Assembly: GCA_008632985.1 (NCBI GenBank)
Contig: QPGO01000050.1
Span: forward strand, 372,001 to 436,000
DNA: 64,000 nt
Source of the DNA: Psammoneis japonica
Lineage: Eukaryota
Direction of reading: 5' to 3'
This document shows, one piece after another, positions 2,383-51,826 of this stretch; position 1 is the stretch's first letter; each line of letters opens with the position of its first letter. Under the pieces are notes generated by a model. That model was not told the DNA's origin, searched no databases, and saw only the letters and a program-made list of their open reading frames with translations. The position numbers and the translations under genes are program-made.

Positions 2383-2383
<1 letters not shown>

Positions 2384-18046: not shown

Positions 18047-18185
18047 ATGAAGGTGGCTCCAACGTTTGAAATCAAGGTTGCCCTCTTGGGAAATGTTTCT
18101 GCTGGCAAGACCACCTTCCTGAATGCCCTCTTGAGGGACAAGTGCGGGGAGGCATCCATGAAGCGCATTGCTGCCGCAACTGCCC
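18047..18185 (+). pseudogene. Truncated N-terminal fragment of a dynamin-like P-loop GTPase
   Basis: FEIKVALLGNVSAGKTTFLNALL G1 motif, then the similarity stops at the domain edge. Confidence 0.65.
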
Positions 18186-18621
18186 ATAAGCTAACTACAC
18201 AATCTGCAATCAAAGGTCACCACACCTAATTCTGAAAGAGTAATTTACGTTGTGTCGTGACAAATTATCATGGATCAAATCAAGGTGCCTGCCGAACGAA
18301 ACTATGAGAATAAAGTTGTAGAGCGGCCTCTCTCTCTCTGCTCACAAATGGAGAGCCGCTCTGAACTTGTCTTGTAGTCTTGGCTCGTCTCAATGGCGGC
18401 TTCACCATTCAGCTACAGCAACCAAATAGGTGTGGTGGACTCGTCGGTTCATGCCACATGCATTGTGTCGCTGAAACAACGGAAGTTTCTTATCCCATGC
18501 GCAGAAACCTTGAACATAATCCACGTAATCTAGAAACTACAAAAAAAAAATCGCGACAACAATTCCTATGGCTAGGCAGTAGTGTCTGGAGTAATCAACG
18601 ACATCAATGACATCGATCTGT

Positions 18622-21600
18622 TCAGCTTGACTGCTGGGAAACGCTCTCTTGCCACCTCTCTTGTTCAATAATCAAGGCTGCGTTAAGTGTTTCAAGTGCC
18701 TTCTTGTGCAACCCTTGATTCCAGTACTTTACCGCAAGATAGTTGAAAAACGCGGCCACACTTGGATAGTCATCACCTAGAGCTTTCTTTTTGATGGACA
18801 AGGCCTGCTGGTATGATTTGAATGCCATGTCGTCCGATCCTTGCTTAGCATACACCTCTGCCATCCTGGCCAATGTAATTGAAATACTAAGGCGTTCATC
18901 ACCAAATGCCGCACTTTGAATCGACAAAGCCTGCCTGTACAACTCGAGCGCCATATCGTACCGTCCTTGCTTGTCATACACTGCCGCCATATTGTGATAT
19001 GTCCTGGCTACGAGAGGGTGTTTGTCGCCCAAAGACCCCCTTTCAATAGACAAGGCCTCCTCGTACTTCTCGAGTGCCTTGTCATACAGTTCCTGTTTCT
19101 CGTAAACCAAGCCGATGTTGTTCAATGTCGTGGCCGTTAGTGAGTGGTTGTAGCCCAATGATGCAATTTCAATTGACAAGGCCTGTTTGTATAAATCATG
19201 TGCTTTGTCGTACAAACCTTGACGGTACGATGCCATTGCCATGTTGTTCAATAGCTGGGCCATCTTAGGTTGTTCCTTACCCTTCGCAGCAATTACTGGT
19301 AGGGCCTGATCATAATACTCAAGTGCCTTGTCATGAAGTCCTTCATGATCAAAAACTGAACCCATGTGTTCAACGCAATAGCCACCAGTAAGTGCTTGTC
19401 ACCCAACCGTTCTTTCAGGATTGGCAGCGCTTTGTTGTAAAGTCTTTTGGCATTCTCGAATTTTTCAGCATACAAGTTTGCGTTACCAAGATAGATATAA
19501 AGCTCCCCAAGTAGTTCGAGGTCAGAACCCGTAAGCCACGGGCGATCAACAATGGCAAGGGCATGGGGCATCACCTTCATCGTCTCATTCCATCCACTCA
19601 TCATATCAATACTCCTCATTTTAATTAACAACTCCAAGCCTACCCAATTCATAACAACCATTCGTGTCACATTCGACATGGAGTAAAAAGCTGAGTCTTG
19701 CAAAAGCCGGTGTGTGCTAATCAGTTCGTGATCAGTATCGTATTGTATAACTGCCTTTTCTTGTAGATCCTCCAGAGCAATATTAACCTGGTTACGTGGC
19801 ATCGCAGAGTCCAGCAACCAGACAGGAACACGCTCTGCATCCACGACCGAGAGATTTTCGAGGACCACCATTGCCTCGTGGCAAAGCGATTCTAGCTGCA
19901 TGCGCAGCACAATCCACACCGATTCTCGATTGTCTCCCTCAAACGTACGTGCGAGATTGAGCCTTTCATCTAATGCCTCCTCACGACGCTCCTTGAATTC
20001 TTCGATTGTTCTTGAAACCCCAATTTTTTTAGCTCGTGAGGCAAACGCAACAATCGCAAGAGGCAGGAAATCAAATGATTCAAAGATACTCAGCATCTTT
20101 TTTCGCTCGTCTCGCTTAATGGAACCTTTTACAAAGTGTTCAACAATACGAATGGAAGATTCTCGGTCAAGAGGACCAAGAGTTAACAAAGAATCTTCTT
20201 CCAATCCAGCGCTGTCTCTCGTGGTAATCACTATCTGGCAATCGGATCCAACCGCGGGCAGCCAACTCCGGACCGCCTCGTAGGATTCAGCATTGTCGTA
20301 AACAATAAGAATAGGCTTTTCGTTCTCTCTATGCGCCGCGATCACCCTGATGACACGTTTAGCTATCTCGACTTTGTTATCAGAATCTAACAGCGACGAT
20401 AACCTTGTCGCATACGCATAGCTAACCAAATCATCAATCAGAGTAAGCTCGTGCTCTGCTCGCAACCATAGAATCGCGCCATACCGAGAAGAGTTCTTAT
20501 TTACCCATGCCGTGACTAGTTGGCTTTTCCCGATACCACCAATTCCATGAGGAACTACGGTAACAGACTTTTTGCTCTTTAGCATTTCCGTCAACTGATT
20601 CATTTCCTCTTCACGTCCCTGAAAGTATGGAACTGCCTCGCGGACATGAAACTTACCCACAAACAATTTGGAAGTTATGTCGTGTCCTTTGTCCGAATCA
20701 TGTCGGCTTTCTGACACCTTTCCGCCTTCGTCAGCAAATGGAACAATTGGATCTGACCGCGAGAGTAGGATCAAAGATATCAATAGAAGCGGAACAAAGA
20801 ATAGGAATCGCCGCTTCACTTTCTTCAACTTCTTCTTTGCCTGCAAAAACTCTACCGAAGATGTGAGTGCCTCAGACAGCCGTTGAAGGCCGCCGCTGCT
20901 TCCATTGTCCGTGAGTTTCATCGCTACGGGCATTCCTTTGCTGGGCCAAGGCAATGGGAGCTTGTGAACACAGTCGAACCACCCATCCCACCCTTTTGAA
21001 TAAAGCACAGTATCCTCCATCGTGGAACACAAGGTTGCAACCACCAGCTTGAAGTCATCTTCTCCGTGATATACGGCTCTTGCACTTAGAATGAAAAGCT
21101 CCAGCATTGGCCAACGTTTCTGGACAAAATCTTTCGAAATGAGAACCATTCCAACGTTGCAGGAAAGCAGCGCATCCCGTATTTCGTCCGAAATGTAGTC
21201 GCCATCCTTTAGTGACTCTGCGTCATAGAAACAACAAAAGTCAGACGACAACTGGTCTCGGAGGGGTTTGACTGTCTCTTCTTTTTGTTCCCCGCATGGG
21301 AGAGAAAAAGGTCAAGCTCCTCTGACTGTTTTGGTTCATAAGATCTTATCAGACTGACAATCATGGTCTCGATAATGTGGTTGAGATTCACAATATACTG
21401 ATATTTCTCGGACTCTCGAAATATATCAAATTCTGACCTGTCCAGATTGATGAGTCCGCCAGTGTATTTTGCAAATTTCTCTGTGTACTTGAAGAGAGAA
21501 ACCCATATTGTTTTTGTATCCATAGAGTCTCGATGCGGCTGAATTGCTACGTGGTATGTAGAGATAAGATCATCGGAAGCCGCCAGCAGATTTTGATATT

Positions 21601-27188: not shown

Positions 27189-29663
27189 CTTTGCTTTTTC
27201 AACTCAATTTGTGAGGATCAAAACGAGACTCAGCACTCTTGCTGTTGGATCTGAACAAAGTCTTCTTTGTTCAAGGTTCAAGCGGAGAAAACAAATACAA
27301 GATAGGAAGCCTCCTTCTATCTCCGTTCGTCGTCTCTATCGCGTCTCTTTATCTTCAATCTGATGATGTGTCGTGTCAGGCTGATCGTGTGCGATGGCTG
27401 GTGCAGTGTGCAGTGTGCGGGGGGCGGCGGGGGCGGACGAATCTTTTGTTTTGATGCGCGCGACGTCGATGACGTGTAAGATTTTCTACGACGACGACTC
27501 ATAACCATTTTTTATCAACGGCCTGATTGCATGATGAGACGCTGAGAGATGGAGATCGTTGAGAAAGCACAAGGTATGATGGCAAAGAGCAAAGAGAAGT
27601 GCTGAACTGGCAGGCTCTCTCTTGTAATGTCGATCAGAAAAATGGTTCATTACGACCGGTGGCATTTCCACCTTCTTGCCGCACACACACATGATTTGAA
27701 AAAGGCGGTGACGAATCTTGTCAAGCGCCACGATGTGGGCATTCCCGCTGCATCCAAGAAATTGTGCAATGCATTCCTAGAATCTCCTGCACAAAATAAG
27801 AGCTGAAACACTGATCAATGGCATTCATCAGAGCACGCAAAATGCAGTGACATCATCACACATCTTTTCCATTGTGACTTTTGTTCCTTTCACAGACAAC
27901 TTTTTTCAGCTTCAAACCTTGTCAGTTGTGCAGCTGGCAATGACATGTCAACTGTGATAGATTGACATTTTTGTGCTGTGGGATCAGACCCCCCCCTCCC
28001 CACAAATTGCACTGTTCAAACAAGGTTTGTGCAAAAAGAGGTTCTCTCATTGGTTTTTGACACATTCGCCAACAACACATCTGTCTTCTCCAATTTCCAT
28101 GTCCAGATCCAGAAAGACTGCAGGCGGTGCTTGTTCCTGCAGCTCTCAGAATCACACACATGAAAAGTTCTTTGCCATGGCGGGCCTGTGTGACACTCTT
28201 CAAAAAAGGCATGCACAGAAACAGCTTCACTTGTTTTTGATGTGTTCACTTGTGTTTTGCACCCATCTTCTCCAATTTCTACATCCAGATCCAGAAAGAC
28301 TGCAGGGCAGAGAGTGGGGGAGGCAACCCATTGGAGGTTGCCTGAGTTGTTGGGCTCATTTTTAAAGGCTTCCCAAGTCTCCCGCTGTTTGTGGACCATG
28401 CTCCAAACATGTCATCTCGATGAACCGTCCGCAGCATGGGAGGTGTGGGGCGAAGCAAAGATGCAACCTTGCTTTCCGTGTTCAGTGCAACCCCAATTTG
28501 CTCTGACAAAGTGCTCCACAATTGCTCATGCATTGCAGGCTGCAGAAATCAGGAGGCAAAAAGAGTTGCCTCCAGATGCTTCTCCCCATCATGATGACAA
28601 CTTGGCAAGAACAGCGATGTTGGTTGATTCACAATCTCTGACCTGCTGAGCATTGCACAATTCTCAGCGCCACTGCCGGTGGCACAGATGCATCAAAGTT
28701 GTTCCCACTCAAGACCTGAACACTCTTGCAAATCTCCATGCTCTCACAGTCATGACATTGTGCGTGCATGACCATCGCCTGCAAAGATCAGAAAGACCAA
28801 ACAAACAACAAGTGCAAGCCGACACCAACAACAAGAAACCAAGTGGACCAAACCAAGGACACCAAGAGCAAACCAGCAATGGGTGACAACAAGGAACAAA
28901 TCTGTGAGTGCTTGAAACAAAAGCAGAGGCTTGCCATGCTTTGTGGCCGATGCTGCTGCAAACCTGGAAACCAAACAAGAGTGACAAGCACAACAAGAGG
29001 AAGAGCGACAGCAAGAAGGACAAAGATGAGACATCAGCTTCCCACAAGAAATGTTGTCGTCACCCCAACAGCATGATGGCAATTGACATGGAGACCCTCA
29101 CCACCGCCCTCATCACAGTGGCGGTCATCACCTCTGCTGCCCGAGTGGAGAGGCCAAGGTCCTCCTCCTCCACACATGATGCCATGTCATGGAGGAAATC
29201 ATCACCGCTGGAGAGCAAGAGGAGGTCCGCCACCTCCCCACTGGAATGGAGAGGACATGGTCCACTGCCTCCTGATTGGCACTCCAATGCAGGGTGCAAG
29301 CACACACTGTCATGAAGGAGGAGGATGCCACAGTCAGTCCATGTCTTAAGCAGGAGTCATTCACGGTGGCACAGTTGCTCCAGGAGTTGGAGTTGCTCAT
29401 CATCATCATTGAGATCAAGGAGTGTGAGCAGCAGCAGAAGCATGAGCAAGTTATCAAGATTCACAAGTCACAGTTGCAGTCTGTCATGTTCTTGTGATGC
29501 ACACTGTCATTGACACGATGCAGTCCTTTGCACTCCAACATGCAAAGACAAGACCAACACCAACAGCGCCACAGACGATCGCACCAAGGACCAGCGCATT
29601 GTGCTTGCAGGGTCCTGTCACAGCTTGTGATGCAGAGCACATGTCAGATGACCTCCCCAACAA

Positions 29664-29846
29664 TGAGCAAACTTCTGCATCACAATTGCATCAGCAGCTG
29701 CAAGATTTGGGAGATTCGAATGACCATGATTGTTGACACCTCAAAGAAATTCTGCAACAGAAACCCAAACACTGTGGCTGTGGTCAATCGCAGCTTTTCC
29801 CACAATTTTTAGAAAGCATTTGTGGACAACTTGTCAAGACTGTTCA
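29664..29846 (+). repeat. 5' LTR (183 bp)
   Basis: Aligns end to end with 35791-35976. Confidence 0.9.
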
Positions 29847-30979
29847 CTGTGATCACACTGTGTCTTGTTCTTCCTTCTCTTTTCTTTGCTGTGCATTCTT
29901 TGCTTCAAATGCAATGTTGCATTTGGCGAGAGCCTCACTGAGAGCACTGTGCTTTGTGTGCAAACCAACCTTCAAGCACAGAGATTTGGACAAAGTGAAA
30001 CTTGTGCAGAGCTGTGGCGATGGCACTGCATTCCATGCAAGCACCTGTGGGATTGTCCCGTGTGAGAGTGTGGTGGCATGCCAACCTCTTTGGGCACTTT
30101 GGGACATTGGACAGTTGCGCCAATGACAAAGAAACCAAAAGGCATTGGAGGGGATGCTCTGTTGTGTCTGCATTCGGGGGGGCAGCTCTGCCATGGTGTT
30201 GCATCTCTTTGCATTTTCTTTCCATGTGTCAGCATGTTTTCTACGTTAATTTCCACGCAATTCAGCAATTTCCAAGTCAGTTGTTTCAGCACAAATTCCA
30301 TGTGTGCAATTCTGCGCGTTTGGCCAGAATTTTGAGTTAAGACCATTTCAAGTTTCATCCTTTGTTTTTCTCATCAACGTTCTTCCTCCAAGTTTTCTTT
30401 GCAGCGCAATTCAATGTCATGATCAACACTTCACGGTGCTTCAAAGTGGGTCTTCACAAGTCTTTCAAGTGGCCAGCATTTCCAGGTCTGAGTGTTTGCT
30501 CTTTTTGCACTTCGATGCTGCAGCTTCAGCACACAACTCCTTCGCAATTCTACGCATGATGGTGTTTTCCGCAATCATCATTTCCTTTCATCGTTGGGGT
30601 CCATGTTGGACTTCCTGGATGGTTTCATGCCAGGAATTTCATTCACATTCTCTTTGAGCAAATTGTCTTCGGAGATGGACACGTGTTCCAGTTTTCTGCA
30701 GTGTTCATTTTGGTGTCTCCCAAGTGGTGTGGCTGGGCTTGTCCATTCTTTGAGGCACAGCAACTGTGTTGCCGTGTGACAAGCATCCGGTCGGTGCTGT
30801 TCTGACTTAAAAGAAACAGCTTCTTTCTGATGGTGCATTAACAGCATTGCCTTCAGACAACATGTTAATGGCGCTGTCTTTCTGACAACATTTGACGGTG
30901 TTTAAATTGCCCCTGCTGCCCTTTGTGGGCACTGGGGAGTGCGGGTCTGCCATGGTTGGTGTTGGTGTGGGCGGCAGTG

Positions 30980-32050
30980 AGGCAGCAGCAAAAGAGATTT
31001 CGTTTTTTTTCTTGTGACAATGGCACTAAGAAACAGAAGATGTGCCCTCAGTTCACTGGCAAGTGCAGTGTTGAGTGCTTGCTCCACACTGCAGAGTGCT
31101 TTGAGAACTGCGCCAAGCATTTGGATCATGATGAAGGGCCCAAAAATTCACCCATTTTGAAGAAGTGCCAGAAGACAATGCTCAAGACACACGGAGCAAT
31201 TTGGTTTCAGGTGTCGTGGAAGCAGATCGGACGATGGCCAGGTTTGATGCAGAAATCGCATGCTTCTGTCAGCGACACTGCGATCATCAAGCACATGATG
31301 CAATGTTTGAATTTTTGAAAAACTTCTTTAAACCCTTTGGTGATTCTCTTTGTGAGCATGCTGACAGGATGATTCAAATGTCACGTTGTGCTGACAAGCC
31401 ACCAGGAACTGAGCCTTTGCTCAATGAGCAGCAGATCAAGAAGAACAACACATTCACGGGCATGCCAATGATGTGGAAACAGAGTCACGCATGTGCTGGA
31501 AAGGACGTCAGCACTGATTCCTTGGAGGATGTCATTCAGCACATGTCCAATGAAAAAGGATTTGCAGATCAGAAGAGTTCTGGCAAGCCTGAAGATGAGC
31601 CCAAGAAGCACAAGGCCAGGGACATGGATCCTGCCAGGAACAAGAAGAAGTTTGGTCCTGATTCTTGTTGTCGATTGCACAAAGACTCTGCAGCACCTCA
31701 TTTGTGGCAAAGCTGCAGGGAGAATCCCAAGAGTCCCAACTGTGATCCAAAACCTCATTTTCAAAGAGGTGGCCAAGGTTTGCCAAGTGCAAGCCAAGAT
31801 GCAGGTCGTGGATGAGAGGTTGCAACCAACATCCAGGCCAAGGAAACTGTGGAGGCCAATTTTATGACCCTCAGAATGCCAGCTGCGCTGGACGTGGATG
31901 TGGCGATGGTGGATGTGCCCCTGACAACAGTTTTGGACGTGGCCAAGGTGGGCATGGCCGTGGATGCAACCAGAGCAGTTTGGGCTGAGGATGCGGTCTG
32001 CAAAATTTGCCTCAGAATTTTTGTGCGAATCAAAATCAAGTGCAGAGCAG
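30980..32050 (+). pseudogene. gag: Decayed gag
   Basis: Position upstream of the protease; zinc-knuckle-like CRLH...HLWQSCRENP followed by a Gly/Arg-rich tail; frameshifted. Confidence 0.6.
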
Positions 32051-32399
32051 CTCAGAAGAACCAAATGCTCACCTGGCTTGATGAGCTCCTCTGACTGACA
32101 CTCAGTCACAAGAGCAGGGTGCAGATGTGCACCACTTTGACATGGCATGCTGTGGTCTGCCAGGAGGTCCTGACGAGACGTCAGGAGGAACGGACATCAG
32201 ACGAGGTCCACATCCAAGAGGACCTGGATTGTGATCCAGTTTGGAGTGCCGCTCCAGTCCTGGTGTCAGCTTTGAAGTTGACAACACCATTGCTGTTGAT
32301 GTGGGGGTGCACCGGTTGAACATGATGAATCTTTGCATGATGCACATTTGTTGCATGAAAACAACAACACGGAAAATGAGAAAAATCAAGATGAGCCGA

Positions 32400-35300
32400 T
32401 GGGATTGAATTGTGATGGCATGCCAGTGCCAAAGGCAAAAGGCATGAGCCCCAACATGGCACCCACATCAGTCCTTGCATGCAAACAAATGAATGGAGCT
32501 CACTCTTCTTGCTTGTTGAGAGCATTGTTTGATTCAGGCAGTGTGGCTGCTCTTGTTCACGAATGGTGTTTGGCAAGTGGAGCTGCTCCAAGCCTGCTCA
32601 AGAAGACTGTGGGACCAATGAAAAGCAACAGAACAGTTGGTTTGGAGACAATTGTGCCACCTGAATTTGACAGATCAAGAAGCATTGATTTTCAAAAGGC
32701 TCTGGTCTTTCAAATGCTGTGCCGTTGCAATGACGTGATTCTTGGATGATCGGATTTTTTGACCAAGGCAGGAATTGACGTGAACTTCTCATCACAGACA
32801 GTCAAATGGTTGGACAAGTCCACATCTGTGAAGGAACTCACCTTTTGGGACAATGCAGAGAATGCTCATCATGCTCTTGCAGGTCCAGAAGTCGAAGAAG
32901 AAGAAACCAACAAGATCAAGTTCTGTTCATTCACCACGCAAATTCTGGATGCCAAGCATGAGTCAGTGTCTCCAAAAAAAGCAGCTGAGAGGCAAACACA
33001 TCTGTCAAGAGAGCAGCAACTGGAGTTGCAGCAAGTGCCAGCCAAGTTCCCAAAGGCATTTGATGGAAAATTGGGTCGGCACCCACATGGGTTGGTTCAC
33101 TTGCTGGAAATTGATCCCAACGTGATTCCGGTTCATCCTCGACCGCACTCAGTTCCAAAGATTCATGAAGATGTTTTCAAAAAGGAGCTCCAGTGTCTCA
33201 TTCAGACAGGAGCATTGAGGCCTTGTGGCCCCACCTGTTGGGCATCTCCTTTGTTCATCATTCCCAAAAAGGGTCAACGAGTGCAATGTGTGTCCAATTT
33301 TTGCATGCTCAACAAGGTGCAAAAAAGGCCAATCTGCCCTCCACCAAGAATTCAAGATGTTGTCAAGAAGAGGAAGGGACACAAGCATTTCACCAAGTTG
33401 GATCTGTCTGTGTTCTGTTGCACTTTGGAGCTGGATGAAGAATCCAAGGAACCATGTGCTGTTGTTGCTCCTTGTGGCAAGTTCCAATGTTTTCGACTCG
33501 TGATGGGTTTGAAGCCTGTGGCAGATGTTGCTCAAGCTGTCATTGAAGAAGTGTTGAGCGAGATTGATGTGGATTGTTTCATTGATGATGTTGGGCTCTT
33601 CTTGATGGTTTGGTCAGAGCATCTAGCAGCATTGAGTGCCACACTTCACTGACCAGAGCAAAACGGCTTGAAAGTGAATCCGCTCAAGCGCGAATGGGCC
33701 ATTCAGGAAACCGATTTTTTGGGACATTGGATGACTCCAGAAGGTGTCAAGCCTTGGAAAAAGAAAGCAGAGGCAGCACTCAAACTTGCTCCTCCTAAGA
33801 ATCACACACAACTCAGATCTTTCATTGGAGCCGTCACATGTTGTCGTGACATGTGGCCTCAGCGATCGCACGTTTTGGCATCATTGACAGATTTGACCGG
33901 AAAGCAACATTTTGAATGGACCCCAGCTTGTCAGAAAGCCTTTGAAGAGATCAAGGCCATTGTGGTGGGTGATGTGTTGCTTGCTTGCCCTGATCACAAC
34001 CTTCCTTTTCAGATTTGCACAGATGCAACCGATCATTGGCTTGGTGCCATCATCACACAGAACGGCAAGCTGATGGCGTGTTGGTCCCAAAAGCTCAGTG
34101 AAGCTCAGAGGAGGAACTGCTCTGCTGTGGAAAAAGATGTGCTTGCTGCAGTTCTTTGTTCCAAGGATTTCTGATCCATGTTGTTGGGAGCTGAAACAAC
34201 AGTCTGTGCGGATCACAAGAATTTGACCTTCAAGATGCTCAGTGCGCAACAAGTGCTTCATTTGCGCCTTTTTCTCAAAGAATTTGCACCCAAGTTTGAA
34301 TGTGTCAAGGACAAGGAGAACATTCCAGCTGATTTCTTTTTACAATTTCCTCACATGGAGAAAACCATGGAAGGGAAGAGTTCAAAGTGGAGTTGAAAGG
34401 CACCGCCATTGATTTTTCTGTTCTTCCGACTGCCATGGCTCCAGAAGACAGTCGCTTGAAGAAAATTTGGGTCCTGAATTGAACACCCCCCATTCTGCAC
34501 CATTCAAGATCAAAGAGTTGGTGGATTGCTTTTTGAATTGTCCAAGCTTAGAAGAGATGCAATGCCCTCTGAATTGTCCTGACACACAGAGGTTTCAGTT
34601 CGAAGATCATGAGCTGAGTCAAGAGCAACAGAGGAACCTGCTTTGTTTTCCAACTCAACACATCGGCAGAGCTCCGTTGATTTGTTGGAGACCTGATGCC
34701 AATGCACAAGAGAATGACCAGAGAATTGCTTTGCCAACAGCTTTGTTGGCACCTGCTGTCAGGTGGCGCCATCAAGTTTTAGGGCACTGTGGCATGCAGA
34801 AGCTCTGCTGCATGATTCGCAAGCATTGTTGCCATCCGTCGCTGCACCGATTGGTCGAGAATCATCACTGCAATGCGCACCAAAGGAACAAGCTCTGGGG
34901 AGCTAGATGCAGCTGCTTGCCACCAGGAGAAGCCCCCTCAGTTCCTTGGGATGAAGTCACCGTTGATTCAATTGGTTCTTGGAAAGCACAAGTGCAAGGA
35001 CAAGAAGTTGAGTTTAACGTGCTGACTGCAATTGACGCTGTTTCTAACCTTGTTGAATTGGCTCGCATTGACAACAAGACTTCAGATTGTGTGCAGACAA
35101 AGTTTGCCAACTGCTGGTTGGCAAGACATCCAAAACCAAATTGTTGCATTCCTGACAAAGGCGGTGAATTTGTTGGAGAACCATTTCAGATTCTGTTGGC
35201 AAGGGCTGGAATCAAGGGTGTGGAGACTGCCGCTGGAAATCCTCAAGCCAACGCCATTTTTGAAAGAATGCATCAGACTGCTGGCAACATTGTTGGAGCT

Positions 35301-35798
35301 GCAGTTGGAGAACATCCTTCTTGCAATGTGATGGAAGTTCAACAGATTGTTGACAGTGCCTTGGCTGCAACCATGCATGGTCTGCGGTGCGCCCCTTCAA
35401 GAGTCTTGGGAATTTCACCAGGAGCTCTCATCTGCCAGAGAGACATGTTTCTTGATTTGCCACTTGTTGCAGATTCAATTGCCATCCGGGATCATCAACA
35501 AGCATTGATTGATGACAACTTGCATCGGCAAAATCTCAAAAGATGCTTTTTTGACTGTCGTGTTGGGCAGCAAATTTTGATCAAGACAGATGATCCTGCC
35601 AAGTTGGAAGAAAGATCTTTTGGTCCATTTCCCATCACACAGATTCGTGTGAATGGGAATGTTGTTGCTGAGCAGAGAGCACCTTGTGTGTTTGAAAGGA
35701 TCAACATTTGGCGCATTTTGCCGCATCGACTTTGGCATGATTGGGTGGATTGCGATTCAAAGCATTTGCGTGAATCGTGGAAGGAAAGAGTGAAGTGA
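32400..35798 (+). pseudogene. pol: Decayed pol (protease, RT, RNase H, integrase)
   Basis: ALFDSGS (PR); WASPLFIIPKK, FTKLDLS, CFIDDV (RT); CTDATD..LGA, DHKNLT (RH); H..LGH, VD.IG.W, DKGGEF, NPQANAIFERMHQT (IN); in-frame TGA stops. Confidence 0.93.
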
Positions 35799-35976
35799 AC
35801 TTCCACATCATAATTGTGTCAGCAGCTGCAAGACTCAGGAGAGATTCAAATGACTGGGATTGTTGACACCTCGAAGAAACTCTGTGACAGAAACCCAAAC
35901 ACTCTGGCTGTGGTCAATCGCAGCTTTTCCCACAATTTTTAGAAAGTGTTCATGGACAACTTGTCAAGACCATTCA
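35791..35976 (+). repeat. 3' LTR (186 bp)
   Basis: Immediately follows the PPT; TG...CA; followed by gacaa. Confidence 0.9.
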
Positions 35977-37605
35977 GACAATGCGGCAGCAATGATTCAA
36001 AAGGCACAAATGTCACTTGTGCAAGTCAAAGCCTTGGGTGCCGCCAGCTCTGCTGCCGGCATGCCATCTGCAGCCGTGTTGTCTGTTGCCAAGGCTGCCA
36101 TGAATGGTGCTCTTGGATTGCCCACGCCATTGAATCTGGCTGCCGTTGTCCCTGCTGCTGCTGCTCTGACGCTGTTGCCAGTGTGCCAATTGCAACACCT
36201 GTGACCTGTCGGCAGCTGTCTCAAGCATGCCTTTTGCCACTCCTGCAAGTGCAGCCGCACTGGAACTGGCAGCAAGGATGCCAAAATGGCTCCAGGTGCT
36301 TCGTCAATGCATTTGCTTGTTCGCAACATGTTCAAGAAATACGAAGAAACCGAAGCTGGTTGGGAAGAAGAGATTTGCTTGGACTTTGAAGAAGAGTGCA
36401 GAATTGTGGCAAAATGGGTCATGTCAAACGAGCCGGGTGGTGAGATTTTACAAATTTCACTGCATTGATGGAGCCATTGCTGGTCGATGGTTTGACAAGC
36501 GGCAGTTGCAGGCAGAGTGTGTTTTGGAGCAAGACTTGCCCAAGAACAGCAAGGTCGAAAAGGAAGAAGATGCCCATGCACCAGTGGGCCAGATTGTGCA
36601 GAGGACGTGAAGGAGGAGAATTGCGATGCCTCACCCATGGGTGAGGTCATCAAGACAGAGGACAGTGATTCTGTGGACAAAGCTGTCAAGACGGTGAGCG
36701 ATGCTTCATCTGGAGCTGTCGTAAAGGAGGGAGATGACGAATCTCCAGCGACTGCAGTAAGGAAGGTCGACGACTACGTCAAAAAGGAGGAGCGAAAAGC
36801 TGCGTGGACATGTCGTTTTCTTTTTGTTTCATCACGGCAGGGAGGAAACAATGGAAATGGTGACATTAGCAAGGGGAGAACGCGTGGCTCGACAAGTTGT
36901 TGATTGAAGAAGACATCAAGGAGAGTCGCGCAAGAAGGACTTGCTTTGTCAACCAACGTTGTGGATTTGCATGAAAGAGTCAAGTGTTTCACACCCATGT
37001 GCATTTTTTGTTTTAGATTTGTGCAGAGCGATGTTTGGACGGTGTGTTCAAAGCGTCAACGGGTTTATTCCTTTTAACGCTTCCCCGGCTACGGCACATG
37101 ACGTTGTAAAGGCGTTTGCAAAAGTAGATGAATGACACTGCCAGTCTGTTGTTCCGCGTTTGAGAATACGGCGTCGCTGACATCAGTAGCGTTGAGTGGA
37201 TCACTGGTCGTCAATGCCATCACACTATGGAATGGGCATGGAAATCGTTTCAAATCGACGACAATGTTGTCTTCGAGGTGAAGCCTCTCCAGCCAGCTGC
37301 ATTTGGCATTGTCCATGCCCCCAGCATTAGGCTGTGATTGAACAAGCCTACCGATCCGACAAAAGTCGCCAAAGCGCTGGTTCGTAAGTGCGGGTTGAAC
37401 CAGTTGACAAACTTATGTCGGATGAAGGAATGCCTGTGAGTGGTGGAAAGAAGGAACGCAAAACAGGCACAGTTGGGGACAAGGCGGAGGATGGGCGTTA
37501 CAGGACATTAATTATAAATTAATTAATAAATTATTAGCTTGTTCTAATTCAGATTGCAAATTACCTAAAGCATGAGTTTCGCTTATCATGACCAGGATCA
37601 TACGC

Positions 37606-39167
37606 TTAGCGATAGTAGCGCGGGTGCCTGTAGGGGTAGGGACTTTCGGCGGTTGCGTTTCGTGGTTCATAGTGACCGTCAACGCCTCCATAGTAGCTTG
37701 TGGTGTCATTGTTGTCCTGCGTGATTCCTCTGTGGTCCCCACAACGATGATCTTCGGAGCGACGATAGTATGAATCATACTCGAAGTGACTACGGTCGCC
37801 GTAATGGCTTCCATACGCGCATTCGTCTCTGGGGTAGAATGCCTTTCTGGCGTAAGGACGGCTGGAATCACAATTACCATCGCTGCCATAACGGCTCCAT
37901 TGGAGATGCTGAAAGTCGGTTGGACGGAACCACTTGTGGTCCCTACAAGAGTAGACATCGCAATCGTCACGCTCACGATGCTGTTTAATTTGCGTTTTGA
38001 GGTCGGCAGTCCTCTCGCGTTCACGAAAATACGCGTCTTTGCATTTGTCCTTCTCCTTGGTCAATGCAATTATGTTGTTGAGTGCCGCGTTATGGGCCTC
38101 TCTCGCAACCCGCAGCTCCTCCTTTTCGTCACACAGGATCAAGCCCATATCCGACCCTACCAACTTGGCGCACTCCTCCCACACTTCCACCACTCGTCCA
38201 CATTCTGCACACCACCACCAAAAGGTTGGTTTTGTCGGGCTCGCGAATCCACAACGCCATCGACATCAAACTTGTGATGAAGTTGATTCTTTGGAAAGAG
38301 TAACTTGCTAAGGCATGTTTCAATATCGAAAGCCTTTCCAGGAGGATACAAGCTCCTGACCGCCAAGAACTTTTTCCAAACTCCATCTAGCTTACCAACG
38401 GCATGAACAACATTGGGATCACCGCTAGCCTTCGCCTTTTCAATGAATATCTGCTCGAGAAATGCCACTGCCCGTGAGGTAGTCTGGTACTTGTCCGAAG
38501 TGACAATACAAAATCCATCAGCCCTAGCCATGTTTTCGGACGGAGCGTTGTAGTCGGTAGTGGCGGTTGCATCATCGTGGTTCTTCTCGGCGTCCTTCTC
38601 GACTTCGCTGCTGGCCAAATCGATGTTGCTCTGATCGCCGTCACTCTCGTCTTCAAGGCTTGGACAATCAACTATGGTCTTGGCTTCTGGAGGCGAGTTG
38701 CTAAGCGATGGTCTCTCTCTGGCGTTGACGGCATCCACAGCGTTGTCTGTTACAAGGCCCGTAGCACTGACACCTTCTCCATGAATATCCGCTATGGCAT
38801 CAAGGCGTTCCCATTCATGTACCTCTGATCTGGGAGCCTCGTCATTCACAGCATTGAAAGCCTTGGTTGTAATCTTTGCTACAATGCCCGCACCCTTGGC
38901 ATGAATGCTCTTGATGCTTTCCAAGCGCTTATCTTCCTTATTGATAGTCACTTGAGCTGTCTTGATGACGACTCTCTTGCCTTTTTCTGCTGAATTGATC
39001 TTCCACTTCTTCTTCCAGATTTTGTTCTTTTCCTTTTGCTCAGCTTGCTCTTCAGGAGGGGCCGTCTTCAGACGCTCACGACGTAGAGCTTGCCTCTGTG
39101 CGTCTGTCAGCGCATCCGCAGCCTTTCGCTTTTGGCCGCGTGGTTGCTTCTCGTTGTTCTCTTCCAT
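37606..39167 (-). CDS. Hypothetical protein (basic N-terminus, coiled coil, Tyr/Arg/Asp-rich tail); probable frameshift near 38190
   Basis: Two overlapping long ORFs (339 and 195 aa) with normal composition; no family recognised. Confidence 0.5.
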
Positions 39168-39832
39168 TGTTAGCAATTGAAACAGCTTTGTGAAGTCGTG
39201 TAATCTCTTAAAATGAAAGAGTTTCTTCGAGTCGCCAATCCCAAAAGGCCAGCAACGTTTTCTCGCTCATGACTTCGTGTGAACGTGTCATCATTGTTTC
39301 GAAACAGTTTCAAAACAATTCAAAATGATTTCGAACTGGATCGTTCAAATCGCCAGCTCAACTGAGTGTAGGCAGGTTAGGTGCCTTCTGGTGGAGACTA
39401 CGAGACATAGACAACCATGGTGGTTATTCCAGACGACCATGACGGTGGTAAACCTGAGCAGAGTTGTGTATTACGGGTTACCGGTACTCATCCAGACGAC
39501 CGCGACCCGCGACCGACCGTTACCATTTTGAAATTTCAACGCCGCAGCAAGTTTTCGCTTGTTTTTAGGGTATTTTGGAAATAGTATAAAAAAACTAAAT
39601 TGATATATGATTTTGTACAATTACACAAGAATTATGATAAAAACGCAAACGGCTTGTCCGCGAGTTCTGCGCCTTCCATTCCACATGCACCGGTGCGCAC
39701 ATCACACCGCACCTACGGTTATCTCTACTCTAGCTCTCTAGAGTAGAGAGAAGCTAGTGCCGTAGCTGCTAGTAGAGCTACTGTAAGAATAGAGAGAGCC
39801 ACTGCCGCTGCACTCTCCAGGTTCTCTCTAGC

Positions 39833-39858: not shown

Positions 39859-40127
39859 GTTCCGCATGGATGAGGGCCCTGCGGCACTGCAGCTGCTGGT
39901 GGCCGAAATCTTGTCTCGCCGCATGGCCATTGACAGCGACCGCGACACCCTCTCTAGAGTACACTCTCTAGTGGCTAGGGCCTAGAGAGAGAGACACAAG
40001 GTTACAACGCACAAGGCATGAGCCGTTGAACCAGAACGTTGGTCCCACGTGCCAGTGCAAGCTGTGCATGACATGCGAGCAGGCTGTAAGAACCACATTG
40101 AATGTCCTTGGCGTCGGCTTTCTCTCT

Positions 40128-40490
40128 CTCAACGCAGGATGGGCCGTTGAATTCGTCTCTCAACGCATGAACGGGCCGTTGAATCTGCTTTTTTTCGTGA
40201 CTTCCCCAAGGGAAGTCACGAAAAAAACACTCTGCGCGAAAATCGCGCTCCCTTCTCCAACCTCTGCGCGACCGTCTCGCGCGCTTTTCAACGCATGTGG
40301 GCCGTTGAATTCGTCTCTCAACGCATGAACGGGCCGTTGAATCTGCTAATTTTCGTGACTTCCGGCCGGGAAGTCACGAAAAAAAACACTCTCTGCGCGA
40401 AAATCGCGCTCCCTTCTCCAACCTCTGCGCGACCGTCTCGCGCGCTTTTCAACGCATGTGGGCCGTTGAATTCGTCTGTCAACGCATGAA
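40128..40490. repeat. ~160-bp tandem repeat (2.2 copies), each full copy with a long inverted repeat
   Basis: Units start gggccgttgaattcgtct at 40141, 40299, 40460; hairpin tttcgtgacttcc-N5-ggaagtcacgaaa in both full copies. Confidence 0.92.
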
Positions 40491-40990
40491 AGAACGCATT
40501 GTGAGGATATGGTACAGTTTTTACCGTACCGTATGATATGAACACCGGTAGACCGACTTCATCCGTACAGTACCGGTAGGGCCTACGGACTGAGACGAGC
40601 GAAGTTAGACGGGACTCATTTCTGTAGTCACGTGTGCGCATCATACCTACCTCAAAACACCACACACCATGAGAATCGGAGCGGCTTTTTAGACTACAGT
40701 ATTTCCAATCCTTTCAACAATGCCAACGCTGGTCGGAATTTTGCTGCGGTGAAGCACGACGCCACCTCGGGTGAGGAGTCCCGAGGCGGGAACGAACAGA
40801 TAATATAATAATAATAGTTGGTCATGTCGCCGCCCGCCCGCCGCCCGCAAAGTCCGTCGATCCGTCGACCGACACCCGAGACACCGACCGGTACCGCATT
40901 GAGCATTCACCATGAACAAACGTGCCTGGCATAAACACACACACACACACAAAACACACACCTTGTTTAAAAATAACCACTTCAACAAAC

Positions 40991-45879: not shown

Positions 45880-48800
45880 CAAAAAAAGAGTGCGAAGCTG
45901 TGCACACTGGCCTGGAGCAGTGTGGCTGCAGCACTCCTCCTTTGGAGCAAAGCTCCTGCTCTAACACATCAGAGTTTGTCTCACTGCTGGTGCCTCCTCT
46001 CTTTCTTCTCTCTCTTGTGTTTTGCCCGCCAGCCACATGCCGCCCCTCCTCTCAAGAGCACTGCAATGGATCTCTGGTGCAGGGGCTGCATTGAGAAAAC
46101 CTTTGGAGGAAGGTCTCCCATGCAGGCAACAATTCCAAGTGCCAGTGGTGCAGCTGCAAACAACAAAAAGAAAAGAAGAGCAGAGACTGTCTTCTCCAGA
46201 ATTGCAGAGCTGAAAAAAGGGGTTGTGCGCATTCATTGCTCCCCCCGCGGTCTGTGTGGAGGTGCTGCACAGCACACACAGTGTGGAGCTGTGGAGGTTG
46301 TGCCCCTGAAAGACATTTGCAAAAGATTGGCAGGCGGCATGTGTTGAGTCTGTTTTGCCAATTCCGCGATGTTGCAAGAAAAGTCAGTTTTGACCCAGGT
46401 GCTCTCCTCCTGGGGATGGGCATTTTCCAATCCCAAAGCCACAAAAGCTGATTTGTGGCATCACAGGGAAACTTGTCTCATCAGCCATCTCAGAGAAACA
46501 AGCAACAACAACTCATGACACACACCACCACATTGACAGCCTGCACTCATCGTCACTTTCAAGAGCAGAAGAAGCAGTGCTGAGCTGGCACAAGCAAGTG
46601 CGGTGCTGCAAAACTGCAAACTCAAGCAAGCATCATGGGTGCACATTTCTCAAAAGCAGAGCAGCATGACAACAGCACCCTCTTTGTCATCAAAGTTCAT
46701 GATGATGCCACCCTCATTGACCCCAATGCTCAACTCTCATGTTGACTCCACTTGCTCCTGTCGTGGTTGCAGCATCTTTTGGTGGACCCAAAAATGCCAG
46801 CCTGTTCTCGACAATTTGCCCTTGTTGCTCAAAGACCATGGCAATGGCTCCACACTTGCTGTGGCCCTGCCTCAGTTGCTCCCACAATGTTTTTTGCATG
46901 CCGGCACTTGCGATGAGCTGGAAGACATGCAACTGGCCAAACTGGGCTTGACCCAAATTCACGCATGTGGCAAATTGGTGGCTTCATTCAATGTGAAGAA
47001 GAGGCTGCATCTGTGGCAAGCGCTTGCACCAGCAATCAAGAGAGTGCTGCTGCAAGAGCTGGCTGTCAGCAGCAGTGGCAATGGAGGAGGCTGCTGCAGC
47101 CCCTCCCCCCCTGCCAACAACAGAAAAAACTGGCTGCATGCTGTCCTCCTGGTGCTTTGTCAGATTGTGGCAACTCTTCTCACATTGACCCCTTGGGTGT
47201 GTGCTTCAAATGGCATGGCACAGCTGTGTGACATGCTGCAGTCAACTGCAATGGTCACAAGGACAGCATGGCAGCAGCATTGTGTCAGTGCTGCTGGTGC
47301 AGCATCAATGGGTCACAAAATTGTCAAGTGGGCACAGACTTCAACTTGTGGCCAACCTGGTTGAGAATGAGAAATGACACATTGATTTGGGGAGTGCAAC
47401 CCTGAAGAGTTGGCTGCTTTTTGGTGGCCAAACTTTGGGGCTAGCTGGCATGGTCATTGGAGTTGACACATGATGTCTGCCATGATTTTCAAGGCATGAA
47501 GTGAAGTCATGGTGTGCAAAGAAAAAGATGGCCAATGTTGAATGTTTTTTAAGAGACTGAGCACCTTCTCTCACAGCCAATGGCGCACAGTTGGTTGCAT
47601 GTTGAGAGCAGCTGTGTCAATGATCTCATGCTTGACAAGCCCCAGGTGTTTTGAGAAATGCACCACATCATTTTCAAACCCTGTGGCCACATTTTTGCAT
47701 CAGATGTGGCATTTTGTCAAAAAAAAATGCAGCCAAAATTGTCTCAAGATTGGTGAGGCACTGGCTCCTTGCCGAGTTGCCAGGGCATCACAAATGGTGT
47801 CCCTCTTGAAAAGTGCTTGGTGGTTGCAGGATTTTTGGCAGTGAAGGTGAGGCTCAAGGAGCAGATCAGAGAGGTTGTCAAGCAGTGGTTGCCAGGGAGC
47901 TGGGGGCAAAGAATTTGTGGCAGGGGTGAAAACATCACAGCAACATGGCAGAGCAACCAAGTGGGTGCAAGACTGCATGATGCAGAGAGGAGTGCTCATG
48001 TTGAGTCTGCACTTTTTCTGGAAGGCACGGTGGTCAGAGCAAAGTGCCTGATTGCTTGTGCATCCACAGCTGTGCACGAGGGGATGGGACATTGCAGTGC
48101 AGGGTGCACGCCTGAAAAATGACTTTGAGTGGATGTCCAGCAGACTTTGCCTGAGCAAACTTGTGTGAACAACAGCACTGCACAACAACATGTGCTTCAA
48201 GAACTCAGCCTCACTCTTGCACGCAATGGCTGCCACATCATCCATCATGTGCTTTGCAGGCAGTGCACTCATTCAACCTTTGCACAGAGACAGAAGCAGA
48301 ACATTCATGCTGCAATCATCACAAGCACTCTTCAAAGTCCAGCTTGGTGTTGCTGGTGTGCATTGTTTCTCTCCACCAGCCTTTTGTTCAAATCTTTTTT
48401 GGCCTTTTCTTTGCCTTTTTGTTGTTCCACCAAAACACGCTGTTTGAAAGCCCTGGGTTTTGATGAGTGCAACATCAACTCCTTCATGATGAATTGCCTG
48501 AATCACAGAATGCACAGGAAACAATTGAACAATCCTTGCAAGATTTTGGTGCAAAAGTGGCCACATTGTGGGTTTGCTTTCCTTGGAAACATGAGCAAGC
48601 CTTGCCAGCCTGCATTGAGGCAACCTGTGCTCTCCAGCAGCACTGATGTGACTTGCTGTCCCAGGGCAGATTGTGCCAGAAAATTGAAGCAGATCAAGAA
48701 AAGCACCCAGAAATTGGTGAGGAGGAGCGCTGCTTTGCAGATGATGTGGGCCACTCTTGCTGAAGAAGTGCAAGTGTGCAAAGAGACAAACATGAGGTGT

Positions 48801-51800
48801 TCTTCTTGTGGCATCACCCATGAGCAACAGAGAAGCCCCCAACCTCTGAGGTGGACTGCACCACAGTTTGAGGCAGCCAGGCACACCACCGCCAGCAAAA
48901 GGAGTGGTGCTTGCAGCTTCAAGGCACCCACATCATGCAGCAACAAACAGCAGCGCACACTCAAAACAAGCGGTGCTTGATTTGAGCACAAAAACTTCAA
49001 ATTGCAGCATTGTCTGCACTGGCATGATGAGCACAGCAGCAGTTGTGTCACATTTGGCAGCAACTTGCCCCTGTCATTGGAAATGCCAGCTTTTGTCTTG
49101 ATGGAAGGATGCAACCAAGCTGAGGACAAATGGGCAACAAGACAATGAGATGTGTGAATGTGGGTGAATGGCAACAAGACTGTCAGCTGAGAAGTGGGCT
49201 CTGTCTCAACAAGTGCACTCTCATCAATGCCGTGCACCACCACTGTGTTGAGAGCATGCCATGCTGCAGTCTTGAGAAAGATCCGTGCAAGACGAACCAC
49301 AGGGAACATGCTGGAAGTCACAATCACACCTCCTGTCTCTCTGCCAGTCATGCTTGCTGGAGCAAAAGAGGTGCTTGTTCAACAAATGTTCAGCCAGCTG
49401 GTCAGGCAGGCTTTTGCCAGAGGGACAGAAAGATGCTCCCCTGTTTCAGGCTGTTTCAAATGTGCTGTTCAGCTGCAAAAGCAAGGCAATGCTCTGACAT
49501 TTTGACAAAAGTTTTGTGGCCCAACAGTCTGGCACTTTTTTGCAATGAACTTGATGTCACAAAAAATGTCAAACCCCTGTGTTTGTTCAAACCAAATCTC
49601 ACCTTGTGCAAAAGACCACACATCTCTCACATTGCTTTCTTTTCAACCACATCCACAGTGCCCAGCCAAACAATGAGGTCCGCTCTTTCTCCCCCCACAC
49701 CACCCACTCATGTGAGTGGCATGGGGCATGCTCACATGTGTGCGGGGGCAACAAGAAAGGGCAGAAGGCTGATGAATCAAGACAGGGTCTCTTGTGGCAC
49801 ATGAAGCTTCTGACAAGTGGACATCCTTCAAAACATTTCCAGTGACAGCCACAGATTCCTCTTGATGAGTGCATCTCAGAGATGAGGGACATGTCCAAGA
49901 GGTGGCAGCTTCTGCAGCAGTGGTGTGGATGGCAGTGCAGGATGACCCTTCTAATTTTTGCAAGTTTGGTCCTGAGAAACACAACAAGGTGCACAAAGAA
50001 GTGTTGGCTGGCAAATGAAACAATGGGTGGGGGGTGGAAAAAGTGGGCACTTTTTTGTCTGCGCATGCGCTGCAAAGCATGGTGCACCACAGCTTAAAAA
50101 AAAACCCTGACTTTGCAAATGGCTGCAGCAGAGCTGTGGAAAAAATGCAATGAGCTGCCATGTGGCAGAGCTGAGAAGCTCCTGCTCATTTGTGTCACAT
50201 GGCACATGAGCCAGACTGGGGTGCAAAGTCAAGCCACATGCCACAGAAGAGTTCTGCATCTTGTCGGGCCTCCTTGGCAATGATGCCTCCATTCCGAATT
50301 CACATGATGGCACAGCTGAAGTGCTGGCAAGAAAGGAACCAGAAGGAGAGGTGCAAATGTTTTGGGAGCTCAAAGTGCACAAGTGCACCTCTTTCTGTCT
50401 GTGTGGTGTCACATGCATCCCACAGAATCTGAGCAGCCAAGCCTTGCACTTTCTGCATGCATCATCACCTGCTGACATGTGGCATGCACAAGAGTGTTTT
50501 TGGGCATGCAGGGTTGCCACCAGAAGGGGCTTGCTGCCAACCCAGCAATGTGGGCAATGTTGCCAGTCAGCAGGAGCACCTTCTCCAGATCCTCTCACAA
50601 CTCAGCAGTGTTTGCAGCTTTGTGTCAGCTCTTTTGGTGTGGCCCAGGCTGCAGCTGCAGCTGGCATTGTGACTCATTCCCTTTCAGTCATTTCCACAGA
50701 GCCAAGAAGCTCTGTGTTTTAAACCATGCCAACAAAAAGAGAAGAGAACAACACTTTATTTTTGCCTCATGTGCTTGCAGGCTTCTGAATGTAGTTTGCA
50801 CAGTTTTCAGCAATTGAGCTTGACAACTTTTCTGACAAATCAAGGCGTGCCATTCCCAAGAGCAGCTGACTTTGCTTGTTGAGTTCTTCCAAGAGCATGT
50901 CGCAAAACAAAGCATTCCACCCCCCATGCCACTGATCCACCCCACTGGTGTGCCATCTGTTGCACTGTTGATCACCAGTCAACTGAGCTGCTCTCATGGT
51001 GGTGGCACCAGGGGAACCCTTCATGACTTGCTCCACCCCCAAGCTTGTCAAATTTTGAGATCCAAAAGGCTTTCCAGATTCAAGGCAGCAAAGTTGCCAT
51101 CACAATCACTGCCATCAATGAGCACTTTTGTCCAGACATGGCATCTGCTTGCTGAGAAGATTGGAGGAGAGAGTTTTCTCTTGGGTGTGCAAAATGTGCA
51201 AACCCAAATGAACCCCCTCTCTCTTCTTTTCCGGCTGCTGGGGATCACACACCATCCCTGGCCTGCTGCCAGCTGCAACTCCCTCCAACTGGCATGAATG
51301 CTCTCACACAAGTCTGGGGTGCAAACACAAACATCTGGAGTCCTTCTTGGGTTTCAGCATTGTGCTGACATTGCTGTGCCATGGGAGCAGAAGTGTGGGA
51401 TGCTGTGTGCATCACAGATTTGATGGATGAAGTGGTGTGCTGGCAAGGCAGCAGAGAGTCCAGGGGGGTGTCAAGAACACAGCACTGCTGGTTGTGACAA
51501 CTTTTGCAGCAGCTGCACTTTTAAAATGCAAGCAAATGACACACAAATGGGGCAGAGCATGTGTGTCAAACAAAAATTTTTTTTTAAACAAAAAAAGAAA
51601 GGTTGAGATTTGCACCAAGCCACACTCTGCTGGGTTTGACACAGCAGCTGCAGTCTGTGTTTTCAACTTTTTGCTCACAGAGGCACATCTTGCCGTTGAG
51701 CTCTTGTTGCTGTGCCATCTTCCTTTCTCATTTGGGGTCAATCAGCTCATGGGCTGTCCTGTCTCCAACTTCTCTGGCCTGGAGCAACCCTGTGAAACAA

Positions 51801-51826
51801 CACACCCGATGACATGCCCGTTCAAG
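45880..51826. other. Hypermutated domain 3 (TpA/CpG-depleted) of unidentified relics
   Basis: Same signature; TA returns abruptly at ~51827 (gtaactgtaattttaaaaattatac). Confidence 0.92.

Follow-up and report, generated by a model that had tools for sequence, protein, structure and literature searches.

The only published match for the TpA signature described here is a 2026 preprint on the rhizarian chlorarachniophyte Bigelowiella natans, the text of which reports that 230 of 231 mutations arising in two integrated viral regions of mutation-accumulation lines were A>G or T>C, all of these at TpA, and that their rate was about 1000-fold above that of the rest of the genome (10.64898/2026.01.13.699255). 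According to the same text, B. natans holds 124 clusters that are depleted of TpA, enriched in CpA plus TpG and enriched for reverse-transcriptase and DDE domains, and the authors, who name an ADAT2-like candidate by prediction only, read the phenomenon as genome defence (Mettrop et al., 10.64898/2026.01.13.699255). Here we describe a diatom case. In a 64,000-nucleotide stretch of Psammoneis japonica (assembly GCA_008632985.1, contig QPGO01000050.1, positions 372,001 to 436,000 of the forward strand; hereafter the window), three multi-kilobase domains, one of which encloses a dead Ty3/Gypsy retrotransposon with long terminal repeats (LTRs), have lost nearly all TA and CG dinucleotides in favour of TG and CA. 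We ascribe this state, with a probability of roughly 0.8, to an in-place, DNA-level, domain-targeted hypermutation that drives TpA and CpG into TG/CA.

The TA half of the signature resembles what the text of the B. natans preprint describes, in that the changes are transitions at TpA only, yield TpG or CpA on either strand and are bounded to silent or foreign regions. The two cases differ in host and target, a diatom here and a chlorarachniophyte carrying nucleocytoplasmic large DNA virus (NCLDV) and virophage DNA there; in degree, the observed/expected ratio (o/e) of TA being 0.02-0.05 here and 0.45 in their NCLDV region; and in the kind of evidence, de novo mutations having been observed there while the process is deduced from an end state here. 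The text of the preprint mentions neither CpG, nor diatoms, nor flank context, and its supplementary Tables S2 and S6-S11 might cover flank context or CpG; measured against that text, the coupling to CpG erasure, the saturation, the spreading into low-copy flanks and gene relics and the sparing of TTAA are new features. In the literature we found no published TpA erasure or other mutation resembling RIP (repeat-induced point mutation) for diatoms.

RIP itself, as known from ascomycete fungi, is likewise DNA-level, post-integration and transition-only; it cripples transposons, can leak into neighbouring DNA and is often tied to cytosine methylation. However, RIP converts C to T mainly at CpA, which creates TpA and AT-rich isochores, whereas here TpA is destroyed (0.2% of dinucleotide steps) with GC content unchanged (0.47-0.50), so that standard RIP indices would read the opposite of RIP. 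RIP mutates both copies of a duplicated sequence, whereas an insertion-free second copy of the flanks of our element, apparently a paralogue, seems unmutated in the positions listed. The decay of CpG through deamination of 5-methylcytosine (5mC) in vertebrates and plants shares with our locus the change of CG to TG/CA on both strands of silenced repeats, and it fits the CG half of the pattern (CG o/e 0.12-0.35, with Arg codons of the form CGN reading Gln, His, Cys, Trp or stop), but it covers that half only and predicts falling GC and no loss of TA. Diatom LTR elements are CpG-methylated (PMC2806351, in the available part of which neither 'deaminat' nor 'point mutation' occurs), and the accessible text of another article places repressive 5mC on repeats and silent genes of diatoms (PMC12344493). 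ADAR hyper-editing and ADAT-derived A-to-I editing share with our locus A>G changes beside a 5' T/U, but they act on RNA, are strand-biased and stay confined to transcripts, whereas here both strands of DNA and untranscribed flanks are affected. APOBEC editing of vertebrate LTR retrotransposons is reportedly another case in which deaminase-type inactivation is recorded in a genome; unlike the changes reported here, it leaves strand-asymmetric G>A on the plus strand, occurs at the cDNA stage and does not fall on the TpA and CpG palindromes.

TA and CG are replaced by TG and CA in three domains

A 500-bp dinucleotide profile of the window revealed three domains, 26 kb of the 64 kb in total, in which TA and CG are nearly gone and TG and CA are roughly doubled:

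6817-18186, no strand: domain D1; TA o/e 0.02, CG o/e 0.15; 18 TA in 11,370 bp
27798-36721, no strand: domain D2; TA o/e 0.05, CG o/e 0.35; TG/CA o/e 1.67/1.76; right edge graded (36.7-37.0 kb)
45963-51826, no strand: domain D3; TA o/e 0.02, CG o/e 0.12; 9 TA in 5,864 bp

Outside these bounded regions, within the same 64 kb, TA o/e is 0.59 as against 0.02-0.05 inside, and TG/CA o/e is 1.14/1.16. Expressed as a percentage of all dinucleotide steps (26,158 bp inside, 37,842 bp outside), TA falls from 4.03% outside to 0.21% inside and CG from 5.69% to 1.20%, while TG plus CA rises from 14.32% to 22.64%, and the combined loss of TA and CG (8.31%) is matched by the gain of TG and CA (8.32%). The GC content is unmoved (0.47-0.50 inside the domains, 0.477 outside), so a GC profile is blind to the domains. 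Because TA is erased to about 95% in all three domains and CG to 65-88%, the TpA and CpG rates are separable. The largest TA-free gaps inside the domains measure 2402, 1897 and 1761 bp, whereas outside no gap exceeds 260 bp and the median is 15 bp. Five of the six domain edges are sharp to about 150 bp, the TA edges coinciding with the CG edges; at the sixth, on the right of D2, the mark fades over about 1 kb. D3 ends 47 bp before an open frame that starts at 51873, well upstream of the first ATG of that frame, and the promoter-proximal DNA just beyond it has a normal composition.

Both strands are affected alike. TG and CA counts are balanced in D1 (1283/1364), D2 (952/950) and D3 (675/698), the two outcomes are unclustered along the sequence (runs-test z of -0.59, 0.32 and -0.45, respectively), and there are no single-strand tracts. 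Counted on both strands, the stop codons inside the domains comprise 94 TAA or TAG against 1313 TGA (1386 against 1479 outside), and TATA, present 110 times outside, is absent from the domains. Because TAA and TAG are almost gone, the domains fill with long spurious open reading frames (ORFs) in all six frames, as many as 58 of at least 80 amino acids in 9 kb.

The pol region of the Gypsy copy contains no tyrosine

D2 consists of a Gypsy element together with about 1.9 kb of left flank and about 0.75-1 kb of right flank. The element is laid out as follows:

29659-29663, + strand: left copy of the target-site duplication, 5 bp, AACAA
29664-29846, + strand: 5' LTR, 183 bp, with TG...CA ends
32468-34384, + strand: first pol frame (protease-like N-terminus, reverse transcriptase (RT), RNase H), aligned to residues 2-634 of the relative P0001
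32750-33652 (300 amino acids), 33653-34174 (173 amino acids) and 34413-35798 (461 amino acids), + strand: stop-to-stop ORFs of the open-frame list
34515-35732, + strand: integrase part of pol, in a different frame (34515-35723 by tblastn against relatives)
35779-35790, + strand: polypurine tract directly upstream of the 3' LTR, read from the sequence
35791-35976, + strand: 3' LTR, 186 bp, with TG...CA ends
35977-35981, + strand: right target-site duplication copy, GACAA, which differs from the left copy by a single transition

LTRs with TG..CA ends, a target-site duplication, a polypurine tract and the pol order RT, RNase H, integrase identify a Ty3/Gypsy element. The order is supported by a Pfam match to RT_RNaseH_2 (2e-18) upstream of rve, the matches to RVT_1 and rve being weak and below the curated cut-offs; a gag gene and a primer-binding site were not identified in this copy. 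Three in-frame stops in pol, all TGA (32747, 33650 and 34172), and a frameshift between 34385 and 34514 show that the copy is dead.

The preliminary description of this DNA, prepared from its letters alone, had called the pol frames free of tyrosine, and indeed the three ORFs contain no Tyr in 934 residues, stop to stop, for which the chance is about 1e-12 at the relatives' median Tyr content of 2.9%. The segment 32759-35798 has 8 TA and 61 CG next to 319 TG and 298 CA. The direction of change was polarised with three full-length Gypsy polyproteins, P0001 (47% identical), P0002 and P0003, which are 39-47% identical to the RT ORF and carry PF00078, PF17919, PF17917, PF17921 and PF00665. The alignment covers 1045 window codons, 1024 of them ungapped, and has 347 columns that are invariant across the three relatives. 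None of the 17 invariant Tyr columns retains Tyr in the window, where they read Cys (8), His (5), Asn (2), Phe (1) or Trp (1), compared with 248 of 330 invariant columns of other residues kept (Fisher p = 1.9e-10). Among the 29 columns with Tyr in at least two of the three relatives, the window has Cys in 11, His in 8, Phe in 6, Asn in 2 and Trp and Arg in 1 each, and the 19 polarised Tyr sites resolve into 11 TG and 8 CA. Invariant Arg is kept in 16 of 27 columns, and its replacements include Gln (5), His, Cys, Trp and stop (1 each), which are what CGN>CAN or TGN predicts. Overall, 46 of the 99 changed invariant columns are explained by one step from TA or CG to TG or CA, against a permutation mean of 10.6 and a maximum of 21 in 2000 permutations; the best single-step assignment gives 16 TA>TG, 9 TA>CA, 9 CG>TG and 12 CG>CA.

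These comparisons bear out the polarity TA>TG and TA>CA proposed earlier, since relatives carry Tyr, and not Cys or His, at these sites. The motif pairs LAYPD>LACPD, IYTDASDY>ICTDATDH, RNY>RNC, RYP>RHP, YPLP>CPPP, VDLIG>VDSIG and YYRDMW>CCRDMW, given in the preliminary description, match real relatives; in the GYKYF motif, all three relatives have Phe and not Tyr at the second position. The strand symmetry that had been claimed from pol also holds, as seen in the balanced and unclustered outcomes above. The erasure of CG, the extension over three multi-kilobase domains, the sparing of TTAA and the precedent in B. natans go beyond that description.

The change followed integration and reached non-mobile DNA

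The two LTRs are 87.0% identical in nucleotides and 97.8% identical in a purine/pyrimidine code. They differ in 23 of 177 columns, 14 of which form seven TG/CA doublets and three of which are CG/CA or TA/CA singles, leaving six columns outside the signature; transversions account for only two. As LTRs are identical at integration and these now differ by TG/CA doublets, each ancestral TA or CG was resolved independently in each LTR. The mark also runs past the LTRs into the flanks, for 1.9 kb on the left and about 0.75-1 kb on the right, and it is present in gene relics of D1:

9378-10278, + strand: threonyl-tRNA synthetase relic, in three frames, with stops
16372-16725, - strand: DUF2252 relic (Pfam E = 2.6e-11)
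18074-18190, + strand: relic of a P-loop GTPase N-terminus at the right edge of D1, the frame of which breaks soon after

The threonyl-tRNA synthetase relic represents a non-mobile gene 20 kb from the Gypsy element and bears the same mark: compared with the relative P0290, its Tyr positions read Cys or His and its Arg positions read His. The LTR doublets, the marked flanks, the gene relics and the strand symmetry lead us to conclude that the change occurred on DNA after integration and not by editing of RNA or cDNA, as the preliminary description had argued from strand symmetry.

No transposon protein was recognised in D1. Pfam gave two hits at E <1e-3 among 64 long ORFs of the domains, and one of 146 short ORFs had a hit; a GAGA_bind match (0.0087) is at chance level. 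None of the 58 ORFs of D3 matched Pfam, and D3 has no repeat structure. When the window was compared with itself in the purine/pyrimidine code, neither LTRs around D1 or D3 nor homology between the domains emerged. D1 might represent a segmental duplication that was silenced, or else foreign, conceivably viral, DNA that had integrated. It contains internal repeats (13369-13737 with 14483-14829, and 13954-14390 with 15288-15736) that are 88% identical in the purine/pyrimidine code and 69-76% identical in nucleotides.

Sequencing-run contigs and other copies of the element

One public DNA run (X1) contains the stretch, and a second run (X2) has spliced GT..AG joints and is probably RNA; X2 lacks cover over most of D2, an absence that was not counted as evidence. 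Contigs from X1 reproduce the mutated sequence at single-copy depth (about 55) with 0.8-0.9% differences, namely 6 of 671 positions over 28352-29019 (depth 51.9) and 4 of 495 over 34520-35014 (depth 53.8). A contig over normal flank has 8 differences in 3040 positions (depth 55.2), so X1 is not simply the same consensus as the window. Differences are denser inside D2 (10 of 1166) than in the flank (8 of 3040; p = 0.015), a weak hint of a raised mutation rate there, and those listed are mostly of the CG type.

Over the body of the Gypsy element the summed depth of X1 contigs is 440-1690 compared with about 55 for single-copy DNA, which indicates a multi-copy family, and the copies differ at 938 transition and 184 transversion places. 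A high-copy repeat at 27738-28805, with a summed X1 depth of 1470-3820, forms the left end of D2.

Both X1, at a single-copy depth of 56.8, and X2 include an insertion-free contig that jumps from 29607 to 35977, the first base past the 3' LTR, and is 85-88% identical to the window over the flanks. At the left-flank positions listed, TG or CA of the window mostly corresponds to CG in this contig, which seems not to be hypermutated. The segments 28806-29607 and 35977-39485 stand at about twice the single-copy depth in X1. These data indicate that the D2 flank segment has a second copy, either at another place in the genome or on the second haplotype; the depths suggest that it is a paralogue, with its end near 39.5 kb, and not the other allele. 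The Gypsy family is multi-copy, and the second copy of the D2 flanks, which keeps CG in the listed positions, appears in the RNA-like run.

Among related elements, 79 of 79 Gypsy loci from a metagenome scan (the best-scoring of 297 confirmed matches, a choice biased toward intact copies) have a TA o/e of 0.47-1.08 and ordinary CG, which places the window element far outside the range of its family. Among 150 integrase relatives from a representative protein library, the short fragments P0198, P0225 and P0271 (35-43% identical to the window) have no Tyr, and they share with P0230 (31-43% identical for the four, 0-2 Tyr) the presence of Cys or His in columns where Tyr is conserved; judged by these residues, the fragments possibly come from other hypermutated Gypsy families of the same or other organisms.

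Sequence context of the surviving sites

The TA sites that survive inside the domains are enriched for TTAA (22 of 56, against 58 of 1528 outside; p = 9e-16), with 7 in D1, 10 in D2 and 5 in D3. Relative to the density outside, survival by context is as follows:

TTAA: 0.55
TTAG/CTAA: 0.14
CTAG: 0.06
all mixed classes: at most 0.04
ATAT: 0 (97 outside)
GTAC: 0 (113 outside)

The surviving CG sites are richest in GCGC (0.51 of the outside density) and poorest in ACGA/TCGT (0.10), a bias that may stem from the flanks which the methyltransferase, or else the deamination step, prefers.

Proposed process and alternative explanations

We propose that the Gypsy copy belongs to a set of three or more silenced chromosomal domains of the diatom nucleus, which two site-specific transition processes sharing one end state, TG/CA, rewrote in place, acting on double-stranded DNA after integration. 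One would convert TpA to TpG or CpA, that is, A:T to G:C at TpA on either strand, with a flank preference under which RTAY is fully erased and TTAA mostly spared. The other would convert CpG to TpG or CpA, that is, C:G to T:A, as expected from 5mC deamination, which in the same methylated chromatin would be the simplest source of the CpG half. The outcome at a site is independent of its neighbours, and no site would be hit a second time, since neither strand of TG/CA offers a target any more. In consequence, all Tyr codons, TAA and TAG stops and TATA-type signals are destroyed and TGA stops arise from CGA, while the GC content stays as it was. The data show the signature, its polarity, its timing after integration, its reach over whole domains and its strand symmetry; beyond that, such a process would plausibly serve as a targeted defence tied to repressive, CpG-methylated chromatin, and by analogy its TpA step would be the one seen directly in the B. 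natans mutation-accumulation lines. The chemistry is the least certain step; enzymatic adenine deamination on duplex DNA is our guess, and a doubtful one. We also entertain, tentatively and at somewhat less than even odds, the more specific picture of a diatom editor of double-stranded DNA that is targeted to chromatin domains (A:T->G:C at TpA, RTAY preferred, TTAA spared), acts alongside CpG methylation and deamination, belongs to the same system as that of B. natans and is either old and widespread in the stramenopile-alveolate-rhizarian (SAR) group or horizontally mobile.

The multi-copy nature of the retroelement (depth 440-1690 against about 55) and the A>G change with a 5' U/T preference, typical of ADAR and ADAT-derived editors, would suit editing at the RNA or cDNA stage, whether ADAR/ADAT-like A>I or APOBEC-like C>U on minus-strand cDNA, with fixation by retrotransposition. 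We consider this very improbable: the mark is neither strand-biased, nor limited to the transcript, nor identical in both LTRs, which are copied from one template yet differ by seven TG/CA doublets; both strands are equally affected without tracts, also in the change of CG to TG/CA, and the DNA beyond the LTRs shares the mark with the threonyl-tRNA synthetase relic 20 kb away. A sequencing or assembly artefact, arising if base modifications at TA and CG in heterochromatin caused misreads and a consensus that settled on TG or CA at random, would likewise be strand-symmetric and domain-bound, and the stretch is contained in a single DNA run that is maybe the source sample. Nevertheless, the independently built X1 contigs, which stand at single-copy depth, agree with the mutated sequence to within 0.8-0.9% differences, pol has a frameshift and three TGA stops, and public Gypsy protein fragments of other families are also Tyr-free with Cys or His at conserved Tyr columns, which makes an artefact no less improbable an account. 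Foreign DNA in which avoidance of TA and CG had been selected, before or after its arrival, would be virus-like, suppression of CpG and UpA being common in viruses, but conserved Tyr and Arg are replaced and stops are created in pol and in the threonyl-tRNA synthetase relic, all frames and non-coding DNA are affected, and the 79 related elements all have normal TA and CG, no intact TA-free relatives having been found; we hold this to be scarcely conceivable.

Passive neutral decay, whereby very old unconstrained DNA reaches the equilibrium of an ordinary context-dependent mutation bias without targeting, is helped by the low TA (o/e 0.59) and high TG/CA (1.14/1.16) even outside the domains and by the fact that methylated DNA undergoes CpG decay without a special enzyme. 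We think it improbable all the same, as about 95% of TA is gone from DNA in which the LTRs differ at only 6 of 177 non-signature columns and retain 97.8% purine/pyrimidine identity, and from this discrepancy we estimate that the rate at TA exceeds that elsewhere by some two orders of magnitude; the sharp borders (five of six, to about 150 bp), their coincidence for TA and CG, and the normal promoter-proximal DNA just past D3 likewise speak against it. A variant of the in-place targeted process would take the TpA step through thymine, a T modified in silent chromatin (for example of the 5-hydroxymethyluracil type) mispairing with G to give T>C. Dinoflagellate 5-hydroxymethyluracil is reported to favour TpA, and by sequence alone A>G cannot be told apart from T>C on the opposite strand; however, no evidence for such a base in diatoms turned up in the material examined, and the text of the B. 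natans preprint favours adenine deamination, with an ADAT2-like candidate by prediction only, so that we see the thymine route as unlikely.

Several observations weigh against targeted hypermutation as we propose it. D3 and most of D1 are without content recognised by Pfam in the 64 long and 146 short ORFs; a single signature step fails to account for 53 of the 99 changed invariant columns of pol, and Asn, Phe or Trp stands in 4 of the 17 invariant Tyr columns. The X1 run may be the source sample of the assembly and is then not fully independent. Among the within-D2 differences listed (29 of 1192 in all), only 2 are of the TA type, next to 15 of the CG type, 7 other transitions and 5 transversions, and since the CG type prevails, the visible copy-to-copy variation is now mostly CpG decay. 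A second TA-free Gypsy locus was not found among the 79 best-scoring of the 297 metagenome loci. The coupling to CpG could be a coincidental co-location, as it is without precedent in the text of the B. natans preprint, which never mentions CpG. A simpler rule, protection of TA by a preceding T, did not hold, as TG replaced TA at 4 of the 5 polarised Tyr sites that follow a T; the tetranucleotide effect, with TTAA and then TTAG/CTAA spared, stands. Finally, we infer "targeted" and "ongoing" from an end state of the sequence.

Implications

A saturated signature in a diatom suggests that the process is widespread among microbial eukaryotes and not the curiosity of one species, and since some diatoms are genetically tractable, an experimental hunt for the enzyme is possible. 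A candidate is constrained by one hit per site, the lack of strand tracts, the preference for RTAY over YTAR, the sparing of TTAA, co-location with CpG decay and spreading over about 1 kb into the flanks, and it might be a natural adenine editor of duplex DNA, of interest for base editing. If a GC-neutral editing defence does exist, standard repeat-mutation indices have missed it, GC being unchanged. For annotation, such domains call for caution, as they carry spurious long ORFs and are missed by screens based on GC content or RIP indices.

Other features of the window

A frame with TIR, NB-ARC and TPR domains (19293-21311, - strand), a STAND NTPase with an architecture like that of innate-immunity proteins, lies about 1 kb past the right edge of D1. 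The window also contains a DHX35-type helicase gene. Its best matches among named proteins come from diatoms, with Fragilaria crotonensis at 70%, Attheya at 68% and Seminavis at 61%, and an unnamed match reaches 81%; such homologues support the diatom origin that the preliminary description had guessed. A tandem repeat of about 198 bp (62317-62903) lies inside the open frame 62109-63431 (- strand) and has a normal composition; its copies differ by CG/CA (12) and by TA/CA or TA/TG (9) singles. The patch 40001-40500 is CG-rich and TA-poor (3 TA and 50 CG in 500 bp) and includes a 159-bp tandem repeat at 40129-40490, 93.6% identical; its composition is that of an ordinary repeat, unlike the domains.

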